From an uncultured bacterium (GTDB lineage: Bacteria > Verrucomicrobiota > Verrucomicrobiia > Verrucomicrobiales > DEV007), in contig CAXBMO010000006.1 in assembly GCA_963977015.1 (NCBI GenBank), positions 224,001 through 288,000 of the forward strand: a stretch of 64,000 nucleotides of DNA, given 5' to 3'. The position numbers and the translations under genes are program-made. The notes beneath the pieces were generated by a model. That model worked only from the letters and a program-made list of their open reading frames with translations, was not told the origin of the DNA and did no database searches. Below, piece by piece: positions 42,560-49,266 of this stretch (the first letter of the stretch is position 1; each line of letters starts with the position of its first letter).

Positions 42560-44977
42560 ATGAAACATCAACTCTTCCCCACCATCGCCGCCGCCCTGAC
42601 GGTCGTCATTTTCTTTGACCCGGCCGGGTTGCCCGCTGCCGGCGGAAAATCCGACATGCCGAACCCGGATTTCACCAAGGGCGATGCGATTCCGAAAGGG
42701 GCCACGCACGATTGGACACTCGGGCCGACCGGGACTCGGGGCTGGATGTATAGCAACAAGCTGGAAACGAGCGAGGCCCGTCAGATTTACCTGACCGAGG
42801 TGGAGCTCGGCTCGCCCGCCGATGGCGTTCTCGAGGTTGGCGATGTGATCCTGGGCCTCGGCGGCGAGCCGTTTTCGCAGGATCCACGCACCGCGTTCGG
42901 CAAGGCGATCGGAAGGGCGGAAGCGACCGATGGCGCCCTCACCCTGATGCGTTGGCGGAATGGAAAGACCGAGTCGGTCGCCGTGAAACTCCCCGTGCTT
43001 GGCGCCTACAGCTCGACGGCTCCCTTCCATTGTCCGAAGTCGCAGCGCATTCTCGAACAAGGTTTCAAGGTGCTGGCGGAGCGGATGAAGGCCGACCCCG
43101 GTGCCGGAAACGGGATCGTCCGTTCGCTCAACGCGCTTGCACTTCTTGCCAGCGGCAATCCGGACTATCTCCCCCTCGTCCGGGAACAGGTCGGGAAAGC
43201 CGCCCAGTATTCCGATCCGGATCGCAAATCGCTTCATTCGTGGTTTTACGGTCCGGCCACGATCCTCGTTGCGGAATACACCCTCGCAACGGGGGACGAG
43301 AGTTTCCTTCCCGATCTAACGCGACTTGCCAGGGAGATCGTCCGCGGGCAAAGCGCCGTGGGATCGTGGGGGCACAGGTTCACGCAGCCGGGTGGAAGGC
43401 TCGCCGGCTATGGCATGATGAATTCACCCGGCATTCCCCTGACCATCTCCCTCATCCTGGCTCGCAAGGCCGGGGTCGAGGATCCTGATCTGGATCGGGC
43501 CATTGAGAACAGTCTGATGTTGATCCGTTTTTACACCGGAAAAGGAAGCGTTCCCTACGGCGATCATCATCCCTGGACTCAGACCCATGACGACAACGGC
43601 AAGAACGGCATGGCTGCCGTGATGTTCAACCTGGTGGGGGAAGCCGCGCCCACGGAGTACTTCTCTCGAATGAGCGTCGCCTCGTATGGCGCCGAGCGAG
43701 ACACGGGACACACCGGCAATTTCTTCAATATCCAGTGGGCGCTGCCAGGCGTGGCGTTGTCAGGCCCCAACGCGAGCGGGGCGTGGATCGAGGAATTCGG
43801 CTGGCACTATGATCTTGCCCGCCGCTGGGACGGAACCTTCGTCCACCAGGGACCGCCGAGCATGCGACCGGACAAGTATCGCGGCTGGGACACGACGGGT
43901 GTCTACCTGCTATCCTACGCCCAACCGCTTGGAACCATTCATCTCACGGGCAAACAACCAAGCGTCGCGCAACCGGTCACCGAAGAGACCGCGGACAGCC
44001 TGATTGAGGACGGGCGGGGATGGAGCCCGAAAGAGAAGCACGCGGCCTACCGCGGGCGCAGCAGGGACGAACTGTTTGAAGGGCTGAAGAGTTGGTCTCC
44101 GGTCGTTCGCGAACGCTCGGCCATGGAGCTGGCAACGCGGGACGGCGAGTTGGTGACTCGTCTGATTGAACTGCTCGGTGACGATCATGACAAACACGCC
44201 CGATTGGGAGCCTGTCAGGCGCTGATCGAACTGGGAAAACGCGGTGCACCCGCCGTTCCCGCACTTCGGAAAACGCTCCAGGCAGACGATCTCTGGCTGC
44301 GCGTCAAGGCCGCCGAGGCCCTGGCCGCCATCGGTGATGCGGCCATGGATGCGGTCCCAGAGTTGCTCTCGATGCTCACGGTAACCGATCCGATGAGCGA
44401 TCCCCGGGGCATGGAACAGCGCTATCTCACCTTTGCCCTCTTCCAGCAACGGGGCGGCCTGTTGAAGAATTCCCTTGAAGGGGTTGATCGCGAAGCGCTT
44501 TACGAGGCTGTGCGGACCGGGCTCCGCAATGAAGACGGCCGCGCCCGCGGTGCGCTTGGATCGGTCTATCGGAATCTCTCTTCCGAGGAGATCCAACCGT
44601 TACTTCCCGCCATTCATCGCGCCGTGATCGAGCCCGCCCCCAGCGGAGTGATGTTTGCCGACGGCATTCGTCTGAGCGGTCTCGAGGTCCTCGCCAAGCA
44701 CCGCATCGCAGAAGGTCTGCCCCTCTGTCTGGAAGTGATGGAACTCGACCGCTGGGGAAAACAGGGCCGAATCACAAAGTGCCTCAACACCCTGCAGATC
44801 TACCGGGGCGCGGCCAGATCCATGCTTCCGGAACTCGAAACGCTCGAAGAGGAACTGAAGGCGCATCGGGAAGCCAAGGGAATGAAATCCCAGATTGAGC
44901 TGGTCCGCCAAACCATCAACGTCATCAAATCGGACCAGAATCCGCCGGAACTGCGACCGTTGAAAGCAACTCGTTAG
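42560..44977 (+). CDS. Secreted DUF6288-like protein with PDZ-like and HEAT-repeat regions
   Basis: WTLGPTG.RGW, GSPADGVL.VGDVI, GSVPYGDH, HTGNFF, HEAT-like helices. Confidence 0.75.
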   Translation: MKHQLFPTIAAALTVVIFFDPAGLPAAGGKSDMPNPDFTKGDAIPKGATHDWTLGPTGTRGWMYSNKLETSEARQIYLTEVELGSPADGVLEVGDVILGLGGEPFSQDPRTAFGKAIGRAEATDGALTLMRWRNGKTESVAVKLPVLGAYSSTAPFHCPKSQRILEQGFKVLAERMKADPGAGNGIVRSLNALALLASGNPDYLPLVREQVGKAAQYSDPDRKSLHSWFYGPATILVAEYTLATGDESFLPDLTRLAREIVRGQSAVGSWGHRFTQPGGRLAGYGMMNSPGIPLTISLILARKAGVEDPDLDRAIENSLMLIRFYTGKGSVPYGDHHPWTQTHDDNGKNGMAAVMFNLVGEAAPTEYFSRMSVASYGAERDTGHTGNFFNIQWALPGVALSGPNASGAWIEEFGWHYDLARRWDGTFVHQGPPSMRPDKYRGWDTTGVYLLSYAQPLGTIHLTGKQPSVAQPVTEETADSLIEDGRGWSPKEKHAAYRGRSRDELFEGLKSWSPVVRERSAMELATRDGELVTRLIELLGDDHDKHARLGACQALIELGKRGAPAVPALRKTLQADDLWLRVKAAEALAAIGDAAMDAVPELLSMLTVTDPMSDPRGMEQRYLTFALFQQRGGLLKNSLEGVDREALYEAVRTGLRNEDGRARGALGSVYRNLSSEEIQPLLPAIHRAVIEPAPSGVMFADGIRLSGLEVLAKHRIAEGLPLCLEVMELDRWGKQGRITKCLNTLQIYRGAARSMLPELETLEEELKAHREAKGMKSQIELVRQTINVIKSDQNPPELRPLKATR

Positions 44978-45006
44978 GGCAAAGCCGGGATCAACTCCTG
45001 TTGCGT

Positions 45007-45559
45007 TAAGAGGAATGGCGCTTGGTGAAGAGGGGCATCGTGCAATTTGCGTTGGTCCACAGGGTTCATCTTCGTGGAACCGCGATCGACAACCAGACAG
45101 TTGTCCTCGTTCGCGAAGGCATAACACGGAAGAACCGCCCTCAAGGAGTCACCGCTTCACCGGCATGAAGCCGGTGGTGGGTTTCGCGCCTTCGAATTCG
45201 ATTCTGGTCGTTAATCGTGCTTCCACCGGCGCAAGACCGGAGGAGATCAATGGTGGTTAACCAAGCGCCATTCGGGGTAAGAGGAATGGCGCTTGGATAA
45301 CGAGCTTCGTCGGCAAAGGCAAGCTGAAGGCTTCCTAGCCATTAGCCCCGGGTCGAGCGCCAGCGAACACCCGGGGTCAGGCATCGAACCCAAGATCCAT
45401 CCCGGGAGGGATGGTAGCATCGTGGCTGCGATCCCTGCCGGGATCGCCAGTTCTTGACCTTTGGTTCCCCGGGTATCGCTTCACTCAACCCGGGGCTAAT
45501 CGCTGAACAAGCCTCCGGCTTTGTTTCCCTCGTAAACCAAGCGCCATTCGGGCCAAGAG
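45007..45559. repeat. Two tandem ~260-bp elements bounded by GAATGGCGCTTGG / CCAAGCGCCATTC inverted repeats, with internal REP-like hairpins
   Basis: Inverted repeats at 45013/45273 and 45284/45549; internal CCCCGGGT...ACCCGGGG and CACCGGC..GCCGGTG palindromes. Confidence 0.8.
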
Positions 45560-45560
45560 C

Positions 45561-45821
45561 CGCGAAGACCAATGAATGGCTGGATCAACAAGACGTTCCC
45601 TCGATCGCAACACCCGTGGATCAGCATTCGATATCCCGACGGCCCGAAAGGTCGACCGAAGGAGAATCCATGACTGATGGGAACCGCCCGGTGCAATGGA
45701 GCGAAGCGACATAGATAGCCGAAAGGCTACCGCAAAGCGGCAAGGGAGGAACGACCGCAGTCAAACCCGCGCGCCGGGTGGTGTGGGGGGGAGCGGGTTC
45801 AATCCCCGGTTCCTACCCAAT
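45561..45821 (+). mobile_element. 3' remnant of a group IIC(-attC) intron: IEP C-terminus, domain V (interrupted), domain VI
   Basis: TNEWLDQQDVPS / WISIRYP maturase-like tail (frameshifted, stop at 45671); GAACCGCCCGGTGC...ACCCGCGCGCCGGGTGGTGTGGGGG; ends CCTACCCAAT at an attC inverse core. Confidence 0.85.
45695..45764 (+). repeat. ~70-nt AATGG...TCAA structured insertion element, copy 1 (inside intron DV)
   Basis: Homologous to 46613-46678. Confidence 0.75.
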
Positions 45822-46368
45822 TCGCATAGATTTTGTGGTCGACCCAATCACCATAGAGATTCTCTGCTCTCTCTTGAATCTTGATAAGGTCGAATCCTAG
45901 ATTTTCAGCGATTCGTTCGCTCGCCAGGTTTCCAATTGCAGTGCGAATCTCAAAGTTCACAATCCCATATGCACTCTCGAAATACGACATAAGTTCTCTG
46001 CAAGCGTTGGTGATGATTCCGCAACCGCGAAAGGTCGGATCTAAACTATACGACAATTCTGCGAGTCTAGGCTCCCAATCAATTCTTTTTGCTGCGAGCA
46101 TTCCGATAATAGACTCTTTGTGCAGAACAAAGAACCTTAGCGATCTACCTTCAGACTTAGATCTCGAAGATTGGTCGTAGCGCCGCGTGATGTCTTCTTC
46201 GCATTTGACATCGTCCACCCAAGAAAGCCACCTACGCAAATCGAAACGATAGCAGTCGATCATCCGGTAGAACTCTTTCGAGTCGTCCCGGCGCATGAGC
46301 CGGATACTCACTTCGCTGGTGACGCGAATAGTCAACTCATCCGGCAGTCCTGTGATTTGTTCCTGTAT
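45799..46368 (-). CDS. GNAT acetyltransferase, RimL/RimJ-like (gene cassette)
   Basis: LRRWLSW, AELSYSL...FRGCGI, NLASERIAENLGF; AAGGAG RBS followed by ATA (mutated or non-canonical start); 3' end reads into the intron. Confidence 0.8.
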   Translation of the reverse strand: MQEQITGLPDELTIRVTSEVSIRLMRRDDSKEFYRMIDCYRFDLRRWLSWVDDVKCEEDITRRYDQSSRSKSEGRSLRFFVLHKESIIGMLAAKRIDWEPRLAELSYSLDPTFRGCGIITNACRELMSYFESAYGIVNFEIRTAIGNLASERIAENLGFDLIKIQERAENLYGDWVDHKIYANWVGTGD

Positions 46369-46387
46369 TCGATCTCCTTTCTTGTTT

Positions 46388-46473
46388 TGCCAACGTTTTG
46401 GTTCTGGTGCCGCCGGGTAGGCGGGCCACATTCTCCCACGCTTTGGCGGTCTCCAGCAACCGATTGTGTGTGC
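46388..46473 (-). other. attC site (degenerate R'')
   Basis: Minus strand GCACACAC AATC GGTTGCTGG...CCAGAACC AAAAC GTTGGCA; L boxes pair with one extrahelical G. Confidence 0.7.
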
Positions 46474-46612
46474 CCAGCATGGGCGTTGTTCTACGGGGTG
46501 CAAGTCCCCGGTGTGAGAATCGTTGCTGAAACGATGAAAATCAGAGTAACCAGAAGCACTAGCAGAAGCCAACTGCGTCCGGGTAACCGGTCGTGGGGAG
46601 GAAGGTTATGCG

Positions 46613-46678
46613 AATGGGAGCGAAGCGGACATCGACAGCCGTTAGGCTGCCCGAAGGGTGGAGTGCCAGCGCTATCAA
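46613..46678 (+). repeat. AATGG...TCAA structured insertion element, copy 2
   Basis: AATGGGAGCGAAGCGGACATCGACAGCCGTTAGGCTGCCCGAAGGG...TCAA. Confidence 0.75.
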
Positions 46679-46723
46679 TGGGCGCATGAGATGCAGCTTT
46701 ACAGCCAAACCTTCGGGGAATTC

Positions 46724-46814
46724 GCCGAACAATCAGCACGTCACTGTCTATGGGCCAAAGCTTAGCTAGCCAACCAAAAAGCGAAAGGCAAAACCCATAC
46801 AACGGTTGTTCGAG
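46724..46814 (-). other. attC site (degenerate)
   Basis: Minus strand CTCGAAC AACC GTTGTATGGG...CCCATAGAC...GTTCGGC. Confidence 0.55.
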
Positions 46815-47123
46815 CATTAGCCTTCAAATGGCAACGAATCATGTTCGCGTGTTGGCAACGCGGGGAAACCGATGACGATCTCAAATACGAAGCAAGCTTA
46901 TCAAGGCGAGGCAGTCAATTCGCAGCTTCGCCGGGCCAAGAGGAATCGAAAAAGCGCTTCAAGAACGAAAAATATCCGCAAGGATCGCCCTTCTTTCGAA
47001 GTCGGCGTAGCCGGAACATTGTAATCGATCAAGGGGAAGAAGAATTCAATGGCGACCTGTACCAAAAAGCAAAAAACTATCGACAGACCACCTCAGATGT
47101 TCGAATCGCCGATAGCCAGCTGT

Positions 47124-47210
47124 CATCGTCGTGATATTCACGCCGTAAATGTGGCTTTCTCGTTTGCTGCACGCAAGAGAGATCGTCCGCAAGGGGCGAC
47201 GGTTCGCTGA
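47124..47210 (-). other. Decayed attC site (R'' clear, right arm unclear)
   Basis: TCAGCGAAC after the cassette gene is the exact complement of GTTCGCTGA that opens the cassette. Confidence 0.45.
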
Positions 47211-47256
47211 TCGCGGAGAATGCTGTCTCCAGTGGTGGGCCCGAAATATGCTTCCT

Positions 47257-47787: not shown

Positions 47788-47829
47788 TTGGGTGTCGTTT
47801 CGGCGTTGAGTCTACAAACCCGGATCTTC

Positions 47830-47888
47830 AGCGAACGTCCGGCACCACCCGTACCGATCAGGCGTCGGTGTGCGTGCCATTGTTAGCC
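47830..47888 (-). other. attC site (59-base element)
   Basis: Minus strand GGCTAAC AAT GGCACGCAC ACCGA..TCGGT ACGG GTGGTGCC GGAC GTTCGCT. Confidence 0.88.
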
Positions 47889-47907
47889 TAGCCGTAGTGC
47901 CAAGACA

Positions 47908-48700: not shown

Positions 48701-48846
48701 ATGTTGATTGGTTGCCTTTGGTATTCATGATGATTCACGAGGGTTGTGGGAATTGTCAAAATCTGGCTGCCGCTCTGAGATTGCTAGTGGACTAGCAATA
48801 CGGGATTTTGCCGATTTCGACAAGGAAGTTTCGAGACGTTTTTGAG

Positions 48847-48925
48847 GTGGAATATCGGAGGGAGTGGAGGAGGCGGATTGACTTTGATGATTGGGTGGAG
48901 CTTCTTGGACTTGCCATCCATCGGC
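48847..48925 (+). pseudogene. Possible 5' stub of a deleted integron integrase
   Basis: Divergent from the array where intI is expected; MEYRREWRRRIDFDDWVELL then runs into REP-like DNA. Similarity to verrucomicrobial IntI N-termini is from memory only. Confidence 0.3.
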
Positions 48926-48927
48926 TT

Positions 48928-49150
48928 GAGCCCAGCCTGAAAGGCATGGAACATGCCAGCCCCGGCCAGAGGGCGGAACGCCCGGCGGGCCGGGGAAAAT
49001 ACCGGTGGTCATGGAAAGGCCTGAAAGGCCGGGACACAGGTGGACCGCCCCTTTCAGGGGCCGATTTCCCCCTTCGGCAATCCCAGGGCCGGGGTGGTGC
49101 TCTCGCAACGGCGCGACGAGCGCGGCGGCGGGGGTTGAGTCGGCTGGAAT
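48928..49150. repeat. REP-like palindrome cluster
   Basis: GCCTGAAAGGC twice, CCCTTTCAGGG, CCCCGGCC...GGCCGGGG. Confidence 0.65.
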
Positions 49151-49266
49151 GATTGGGGATTGCCTAACCGGTTTTGGTCTGATACGTGAGCTGGCTGCCC
49201 AAAAGATAGGGTGAAGGGCTATAACTCACGATTCTGCTTCAATCCCTTTGGAGACGGTTTCATCAA

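Follow-up and report, generated by a model that had tools for sequence, protein, structure and literature searches.

A truncated group IIC intron with an extended domain V at the end of a GNAT gene cassette in an uncultured Verrucomicrobiales bacterium

A 64,000-nucleotide stretch of DNA from an uncultured bacterium of the Verrucomicrobiales (GenBank assembly GCA_963977015.1, contig CAXBMO010000006.1, positions 224,001 to 288,000 of the forward strand; hereafter the window) contains at 45560-45821, on the plus strand, the dead 3' stump of a mobile group IIC intron, which we call relic A. This stump lies antisense to a gene for a GNAT acetyltransferase (45799-46335, minus strand; Pfam Acetyltransf_3, 66.9 bits) and overlaps its end. 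The evidence presented here makes it probable that an intron targeting attC, the recombination site of integron cassettes, invaded the attC of the GNAT cassette, and that the 3' part left behind rewrote the tail of the GNAT gene. Moreover, domain V of relic A carries a 70-nt segment that was most likely already present in the inserting intron RNA. Whereas the relic as such represents known behaviour of these introns, the extended domain V shared with related copies is the new part.

The identity of relic A is established by comparison with a complete sibling on contig C17 of the same genome: 45556-45694 is 94% identical to C17:905-1042 (minus strand; blastn E 1.3e-53) and 45765-45823 is 80% identical to C17:846-902 (minus strand), with the 70 bases between them (45695-45764) forming an exact gap between the two blast pieces and having no counterpart in C17. 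An initial annotation, made from the letters of the window alone, had recognized here a frameshifted maturase-like tail, a domain V with a CGC triad and a domain VI, all of which were borne out. The tail comprises the last ~38 codons of the reverse transcriptase (RT)/maturase, the intron-encoded protein (IEP), at 45560-45673, with the stop codon TGA at 45671-45673. Residues 479-496 and 484-516 of the C17 IEP map to two different frames of the window by tblastn; hence, the +1 frameshift is real, and it lies between TNEWLDQQDVPS and WISIRYP, where the tail has a single extra base (gcaacacccgtgg versus gcaaaccagtgg). The consensus fold (RNAalifold) and pair counts of 22 copies place the 5' strand of domain V at 45683-45694, with the CGC catalytic triad at 45685-45687, and, together with a covariance model (CM), its 3' strand with a two-base bulge at 45769-45782 and domain VI at 45786-45821, with a bulged A at 45815. 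The 70-nt extension stands in place of the apex of domain V, its boundaries being accurate to +/-3 nt. The intron ends with ...CCTACCCAAT at 45821 and is followed by TCGCATAG; this 3' end agrees with the end of the Rfam model RF00029 (Intron_gpII) in C17. It speaks against this identification that RF00029 itself found no match in the window at its gathering score, nor in 44000-47000 at E<=10, a failure that we attribute to the replacement of the apical base pair and tetraloop of domain V; these two Rfam searches recovered no other intron or ribozyme family and no tRNA either, apart from a weak tRNA-Sec match treated below. A family-specific CM, built from 14 ordinary domain V-domain VI copies of this intron family, scored 41.9 bits (E 1.4e-9) on the unedited window, at 45746-45824, whereas its second match reached 6.2 bits.

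Contigs from four DNA runs of one study span the joints between repeat and relic, the insert, and the joint between relic and GNAT gene, with no differences and no alternative joints, which shows that relic A is no assembly artefact; since these runs possibly include the source sample, they do not constitute independent support beyond that. Among the RNA data sets, none was listed as containing 45500-46750. We also considered whether 45744-45817 could be a fragment of a tRNA-like or tmRNA-like gene at the edge of a genomic island, as a weak tRNA-Sec match (18.3 bits, E 3.5) and the drop in GC just to the right of these bases might suggest. The probability of this is negligible: the score is far below the 47-bit cut-off and is caused by the T-loop-like GGTTCAATCC of domain VI, the same bases form domain VI in the 22 aligned copies, and ARAGORN found no tRNA or tmRNA in the window.

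A search of the genome for full-length copies, which the initial annotation had proposed, thus yielded a sibling with an intact RT from which the class of the intron can be read. The C17 intron matches RF00029 at C17:848-917 (minus strand; 46.4 bits against a 40-bit cut-off) and RF02001 (group-II-D1D4-3) with 99.8 bits, and encodes an intact RT/maturase of 516 codons ending in ...MTNEWLDQQGVPSIANQWISIRYPDGPKGRPKENP*, the nearest PDB relative of which is the GsI-IIC RT (413 bits over residues 35-449). The protein is a class C IEP lacking an endonuclease domain, as judged on this full-length sibling only. A CGC instead of an AGC triad in domain V marks class C, and the middle G of the triad is expected to pair with U; correspondingly, the C-G-C at 45685-45687 of relic A pairs as C-G, G-U and C-G in 19-21 of 21 distinct copies. 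C17 is thus a class C intron, and the stump in the window is the 3' end of an intron of the same kind.

The effect of the insertion on the GNAT gene is apparent from an alignment of ten homologues, one of which has a shorter N-terminus and another of which is missing four internal residues. Nine of them extend to the C-terminus, and in these the conserved part ends with ...HKIY-x-N/x, after which come 5-22 variable residues. The window protein ends in ...HKIYAN|WVGTGD*, with the intron junction inside the N codon, such that its last seven codons (the junction-spanning N followed by WVGTGD) and the stop codon are partly or wholly intron antisense. This upholds the earlier proposal that the gene borrows its last codons and stop from the intron. 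The last native codons are contained in TATGCGA (45822-45828, minus strand), which would also provide the left-hand portion of the interrupted inverse core, TGCGA|AC.

This placement of the junction, likewise proposed initially, is supported by three lines of evidence. First, a metagenome search for GNAT homologues returned 65 loci, of which one (L034) is identical to the window, with its contig stopping inside relic A, and another (L035) encodes a 74% identical homologue on an unrelated contig; these two were sufficiently similar for the junction to be compared, the remaining 63 being 24-37% identical. At the codons equivalent to the junction L035 reads TAT GCC AAC AAG, i.e., an uninterrupted TGCCAAC core (TGCCAAC|AAG), followed by an imperfect palindrome of ~140 nt and then by GTTCTCC. 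Second, the GNAT cassette itself starts with G|TTGGCA (46394-46388, minus strand), the complement of TGCCAAC, and the visible TGCGA agrees with TGCCAAC in four of five bases. Third, a further intron piece, fragment B, lies at the other end of the cassette with a TTGT junction. This fragment (46468-46614, plus strand) corresponds to the 5'-terminal ~147 nt of another group IIC intron (GTGTGCCCAGCATGGGC...), being 82% identical to positions 94-153 of the C17 intron, with an additional match at the 5' end, and 84% identical to C16:88-242. Its junction at 46467/46468 reads ...CCGATTGT|GTGTGCCC on the plus strand, i.e., TTGT|GTGTG, directly after an imperfect hairpin with two bulged bases. Consequently, the GNAT cassette lies between the 3' end of one intron and the 5' start of another.

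These junctions recall the IIC-attC introns of integrons, which, as described in parts of two papers, recognize the target TTGT/T (PMC7923331), insert at the R'' core on the attC bottom strand, lie opposite to the cassettes, often in the last ones, and occur also in arrays without an integrase (PMC7923331, PMC3001079). Among the 5' exons of the intron copies in this genome three of five end in TTGT (fragment B, C16 and the second copy on C4), the others being CTGT (C4) and TTGA (C17); T is the first base of the 3' exon in five of six (TC, TC, TC, TA and CC, with TC for relic A). For relic A the 3' side of the target, T|CGCA, adjoins the GNAT codons and the 5' side is lost. All open reading frames (ORFs) flanking the intron pieces are on the opposite strand. 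Further, the best plasmid-borne relatives of the C17 IEP (48-51% identity) belong to introns in three settings: after catB3, which is the last cassette of its class 1 integron; flanked by aadA11 and a qac cassette; and beside an integron integrase. All of them are antisense to the cassettes. The genome context is also compatible with a cassette array: the GNAT gene belongs to a low-GC block (0.47-0.52, most flanking intervals being at ~0.60-0.65) of three short minus-strand genes, and occurs in only 2 of 301 genomes sampled from the order, its own genome included. Cassette 2, preceding GNAT, starts with TTCGCT, and its inverse-core candidate AGCGAAC is a 7/7 complement of GTTCGCT. Hence, the complementarity of core boxes (R'' with R', and cassette start with its own R'') holds at two cassettes, which is the logic of integron cassettes. 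Two attC-like sites can be delineated, one of the SHOCT cassette (GGCTAAC ... GTTCGCT; 47830-47888, minus strand) and one upstream of GNAT (46388-46467, plus strand), the bottom strand of which would run from the complement of R', GTTGGCA, through the imperfect hairpin to ...GATTGT. An integron integrase is encoded elsewhere in the same genome (contig C1; 291 bits against a curated cut-off of 265). From its sequence the region appears to be a short cassette array with no integrase nearby, in which the attC sites are candidates.

Several results weigh against the invasion of an attC site. No more than five bases of the inverse core of GNAT can be seen, and their fit to the RYYYAAC consensus is poor. 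The bottom-strand folds of the three candidate attC sites are no better than those of shuffled sequences: that of 47826-47892 (z -1.59) comprises an R box, a spacer, an L box containing a single extrahelical base, and a stem at the apex; 46386-46468 folds as DNA into a stem with two bulged bases (z -0.79, not significant); and the candidate at 47095-47215 (z 0.01) does not have the expected shape. A scan for AAC...GTT hairpins did not single out the array, being unselective in this GC-rich window, and no integrase was found within the window. Finally, in a tree of 11 IEP sequences, C17 and two relatives form one clade and three integron-borne references another (each with support 100), which are joined without support at a deep fork; moreover, class C introns from outside integrons are as similar to the C17 IEP as the integron-borne ones. 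The core of the initial interpretation holds, namely an intron remnant antisense to the cassette genes that sits in the attC inverse core of the last cassette, GNAT. The element is an attC-targeting IIC intron by behaviour, while this small phylogeny leaves its membership of the IIC-attC clade without support.

The same points could be taken to mean that an ordinary group IIC intron merely inserted behind a terminator-like hairpin of the GNAT gene and that the integron context has been over-read. Group IIC introns in general insert after hairpins, as parts of PMC3001079 describe, and, besides the insignificant folds and the unsupported fork, the insertion sites of C17 and C16 have weaker core boxes. 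We nevertheless regard this as improbable in view of the complementary core boxes at two cassettes, the TTGT|T junctions, the orientation antisense to every flanking ORF, and the patchy distribution of GNAT and its place in a low-GC block of short genes on one strand; in addition, relatives carry relics at cassette-like spacing, at least four of them within 5 kb on contig C25 of genome G049.

The course of events that best fits these observations would be as follows. A mobile group IIC intron, with the 70-nt segment within its RNA, would have reverse-spliced into the bottom strand of the attC behind the GNAT cassette, cutting between GT and T of the complement of the inverse core; a cut at this place in this strand leaves the intron antisense to the cassette. 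What remains of this intron is its 3' end, with ~38 codons of the maturase and domains V and VI; the 5' part, the RT and the remainder of the attC have been lost, having either never been copied, by incomplete retrohoming, or been deleted beside a miniature inverted-repeat transposable element (MITE)-like repeat. The GNAT frame, which would formerly have run on into its own attC, now enters the intron antisense, and for this reason the N codon, six new residues and the stop involve intron bases. The next attC upstream would have been invaded by a second copy of the intron, of which the first ~147 nt were left, fused to a small module and a fragment of an IS110-family element (see below).

As to the 5' loss, the initial annotation had proposed that the 5' intron, the RT and the rest of the attC were deleted at a repeat boundary; their absence and the adjacency of a repeat stand, and the proposed cause has an equal rival. 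The space between relic A and the neighbouring chromosomal gene is occupied by a tandem pair of MITE-like repeats (45013-45273 and 45284-45549), both of which have the terminal inverted repeat GAATGGCGCTTGG and stand directly after TAAGAG, and the homology of relic A to its sibling begins at most ~10 nt from the right end of the second one. If a complete intron had inserted, its 5' part, RT gene and the rest of the attC could later have been deleted via these repeats; that the tandem repeats reach the chromosomal gene, that no attC remainder is seen to the left of relic A and that the same repeat family invaded another intron copy all favour this course, to which we give slightly less than an even chance. 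In contrast, related relics are usually truncated at the 5' end, at many different points, next to unrelated upstream DNA and with the repeat absent, which makes truncation at integration an equal rival to a later deletion. Incomplete retrohoming of linear group II intron RNAs gives precise 3' junctions and ragged 5' ends, the very combination seen here. Domain I of an intron copy on C4 also holds a member of this MITE family, one with the terminal inverted repeat GAATGGCGCAAGG and an apparent flanking duplication of 10 nt, and part of the repeat recurs near several contig ends.

We next turn to the 70-nt segment in domain V. The initial annotation had correctly marked 45695-45764 as an insert. 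This insert is no peculiarity of relic A but is shared by related relics. The last 161 nt of the sibling, used as a query against 121 genomes of the bacterial family, detected the intron family in 45 of them, with many matches split at the same point. Among 13 loci selected because their matches split or stopped at the insert point of domain V, all 13 have an insert at the identical position; nine carry the ~70-nt type of the window and four another type, which measures 52 nt in three and 113 nt in L166, where it contains extra sequence. With the extended domain V as query, copies were found in 12 of 134 genomes of the family, distributed over 4 of 30 genera, with up to six or more copies per genome. 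In a wider search of one genome per species, an exact 24-position pattern with 20 fixed bases, which misses any copy with a change in these, returned 37 stretches: 22 loci are true extended copies, all from Verrucomicrobiota, and the other 15 are coding sequences from different phyla that fit the pattern by chance. The 3' exons vary among the copies, pointing to independent insertions, with T as the first base in 14 of 14. The 5' ends lie at variable points, some of them inside the extension. One extended copy retains an RT piece (residues 126-200) and a copy of the second type retains residues 336-516, indicating an ORF-bearing origin.

The structure of domain V is maintained around the extension. 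Across the alignment of 22 copies 92.7% of the cells are paired, compared to at most 50% when the partners are slid, and in six pairs both partners are altered, with 6 of 500 shuffles reaching this count; the helices of domain V itself, two in number, are 97-98% paired, with two of their pairs changed on both sides. The window extension forms two small hairpins and ends in ...GTCAA. The CM had aligned the end of the insert as a degenerate domain V 5' strand, which would imply a target duplication; this was rejected since most of the pairs are non-standard and only about half of the bases agree. Two further peculiarities of the extended relics may be mentioned. On contig C25 of G049 (74900-80850; L174, L195, L199 and L232) at least four, and probably seven, relic pieces with an extended domain V fall within 6 kb, spaced like cassettes, so that the array appears saturated with intron stumps. 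The relics L161, L165, L166, L168 and L169 contain an additional small, hairpin-rich insertion, which falls between ...CAGCATT and CGGTATCC of their maturase tails.

Fragment B carries a 64-nt copy of a module in its domain I (46615-46678, plus strand; nhmmer E 7.4e-18), which bears on the origin of the extension. We examined this copy, one at C4:397499-397572, and those at loci L101, L104, L106-L110, L113, L114 and L122-L129. The module measures 61-71 nt and has strongly conserved ends, a covarying central hairpin, a CCC-GAA-GGG hairpin, mini-hairpins of the GCGAAGC type and the end ...ATCAA; it shows no coding capacity and no terminal inverted repeats, its ends having instead the look of direct repeats that enclose a pair of small hairpins. 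In 15 of 17 copies it comes directly after ...GAA, with no visible target duplication. A query of fragment B plus module matched 83 of the 301 genomes of the order, and 78 of the 116 matches listed cover the module part only; its identity across families of the order is 78-94%. The module is present at one site in domain I of five intron copies and absent from C17, which is 97% identical. It is also found at two different sites of IS91-type transposase genes, splitting the Pfam Y2_Tnp match into profile positions 4-70 and 112-179; here, removal of 64 or 61 nt restores the frame, and one genome shows an empty version of one of the sites. Still other contexts harbour it as well. A profile search (nhmmer) of this genome recovered only the two domain I copies, there was no match of the module in Rfam, and no paper was found for its sequence strings in the literature searched.

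The first 37 nt of the window insert align with the module of fragment B in 32 of 39 columns, a score reached by 1 of 1000 shuffles, and more distant extended copies resemble the module throughout. One could accordingly see in the 70-nt segment a small mobile DNA element, absent from the retrohoming RNA, which repeatedly entered the apical loop of domain V in resident intron copies, the more so as the module clearly moves, as is evident from its presence in only some domain I copies, from the IS91-type genes and from the empty site. Some facts about the extended copies also count against their descent from an extended parent. No full IEP was found upstream of the extended domain V at 30 loci or at the 22 loci, compared to an IEP of at least 240 residues upstream of 4 of 23 loci with an ordinary domain V; hence, an active master with an extended domain V has to be postulated. 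Ordinary copies in the same genomes have identical flanks in domains V and VI (GGTGC-GG-ACCCGCATG versus GGTGC-[insert]-ACCCGCATG), which would also fit the repeated insertion of a mobile module. On the other hand, this genome contains no free copy of the window-type segment outside domain V, all copies have the segment at the very same position, the truncation points of some lie within it, as would follow from its presence in the template, and random insertion among resident copies should have left some full-length carriers. On balance, a mobile segment entering resident copies appears rather unlikely to us, and we lean slightly towards ORF-bearing intron RNAs having contained the extension when they reverse-spliced into numerous attC sites, with only incomplete copies as the result. 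A more far-reaching possibility, which we advance tentatively and consider doubtful, is that a proliferating, attC-targeting IIC lineage of Verrucomicrobiota works with a structured module of 52-75 nt where domain V otherwise has its tetraloop, and that this module is also a freely moving mini-element which enters other mobile elements, namely domain I of introns and IS91-type transposase genes.

The module of fragment B is followed by the 3' fragment of an IS110-family element (46680-47104, plus strand), which comprises the C-terminal tail of the transposase and then the non-coding right end. Its C-terminal ~60 residues are 52% identical to annotated IS110-family transposases (tblastn E 8e-9), and a Pfam search with the frames of 46587-47131 gave no match, including to the DEDD transposase domain. 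The fragment is 94% identical to C41:13277-13553, and its end recurs on C41, C30 and C16. We considered whether the module could be the left end of this IS110 fragment and rejected this, since on C41 an IEP fragment is joined to the same IS110 tail and the module is absent. The IS1111-attC group reportedly targets attC sites.

Other intron copies of this genome show related arrangements. C16:1-1100 (L031) repeats the layout of the window: an intron 3' end, ...CCTACCCTAAT|TCGGTG, at 938, then a low-GC antisense gene of ~670 nt, then TTGT|GTGTT opening a second intron fragment at ~243. At C4:396981-398038 (L029) there is an ORF-less derivative of the C17-type intron of ~1 kb; its domain I contains the module and a MITE, its domain V is ordinary and the loop of its domain VI is duplicated. 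At C31:26850-26930 (L030), the last 13 bases and TAG stand three times behind an intron 3' end (CCTACCCGATTAG), followed by two copies of CCCTACTCCATTTG. At the upstream edge of the array in the window a perfect core-type GTTAGGC (49162-49168, minus strand) lies beside the gene for an XylR/AraC-type regulator, with the matching inverse core absent; a promoter-like TTGACA-18-AATCAT (48730-48759, minus strand) precedes the SHOCT gene, and 48900-49100 is a repeat present on at least ten contigs.

Compared to known systems, the intron resembles IIC-attC introns (S.ma.I2 type, and the plasmid-borne L099, L239 and L240) in its class C RT lacking an endonuclease domain, its CGC triad and, going by the parts of the published descriptions cited above, its use of the attC bottom strand at the inverse core with TTGT/T, antisense and often behind the last cassette. 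It differs in that its IEP is only 48-51% identical to theirs and not joined to their clade with support in the small tree, and in the 70-nt extension of domain V. A further difference is that IIC-attC introns of integrons are described, in part of PMC3001079, with an outward promoter, whereas no outward sigma-70-type promoter was predicted in the retained fragment at 46468-46680, although promoters of this organism may differ. Another close precedent is UHB.F1, a 5'-truncated IIC-attC intron in a cassette array from a soda-lake metagenome, the best database relative of which is an RT from Verrucomicrobia, as given in part of PMC7923331.

With respect to the canonical domain V (RF00029), the 22 copies keep the two helices, the two-base bulge and the G-U pair of the triad, and the bulged A of domain VI lies seven bases from the end as in canonical group II introns. 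In contrast, a structured segment of 52-75 nt takes the place of the apical base pair and the tetraloop. The loop of domain V normally docks on domain I; the extended form would have been compatible with catalysis. No paper on an insertion or extension in domain V of a group II intron was found in the literature searched. The module is comparable to miniature mobile elements (MITE-like or hairpin-bearing, of the IS200/IS605- or IS91-type HUH kind) in being non-coding, in residing inside mobile elements, in its end ...TCAA and in having no visible target duplication; it is unlike them in lacking terminal inverted repeats, in having two clear copies in this genome and in that no partner enzyme was found.

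Relic A provides a clean case in which an inserting intron gave a cassette gene a new end and eliminated the recombination site behind it, and the cassette has most likely been fixed in place by this loss. More generally, the cassette arrays of the bacterial family appear to be heavily colonized by intron stumps, in some genomes with several per array, which bears on the mobility of these arrays. Dozens of independent copies carry a structured extension at what is usually a four-base loop, with the helices of domain V still paired. If the parent RNA was active, it would constitute a natural large insertion in the catalytic core that is of interest for the structural biology of ribozymes. If the extension indeed belongs to a lineage of introns, the most conserved part of the group II ribozyme would tolerate a large apical insertion, and, instead of simply being lethal to the elements that host it, the module might undergo removal or bypass in the RNA.

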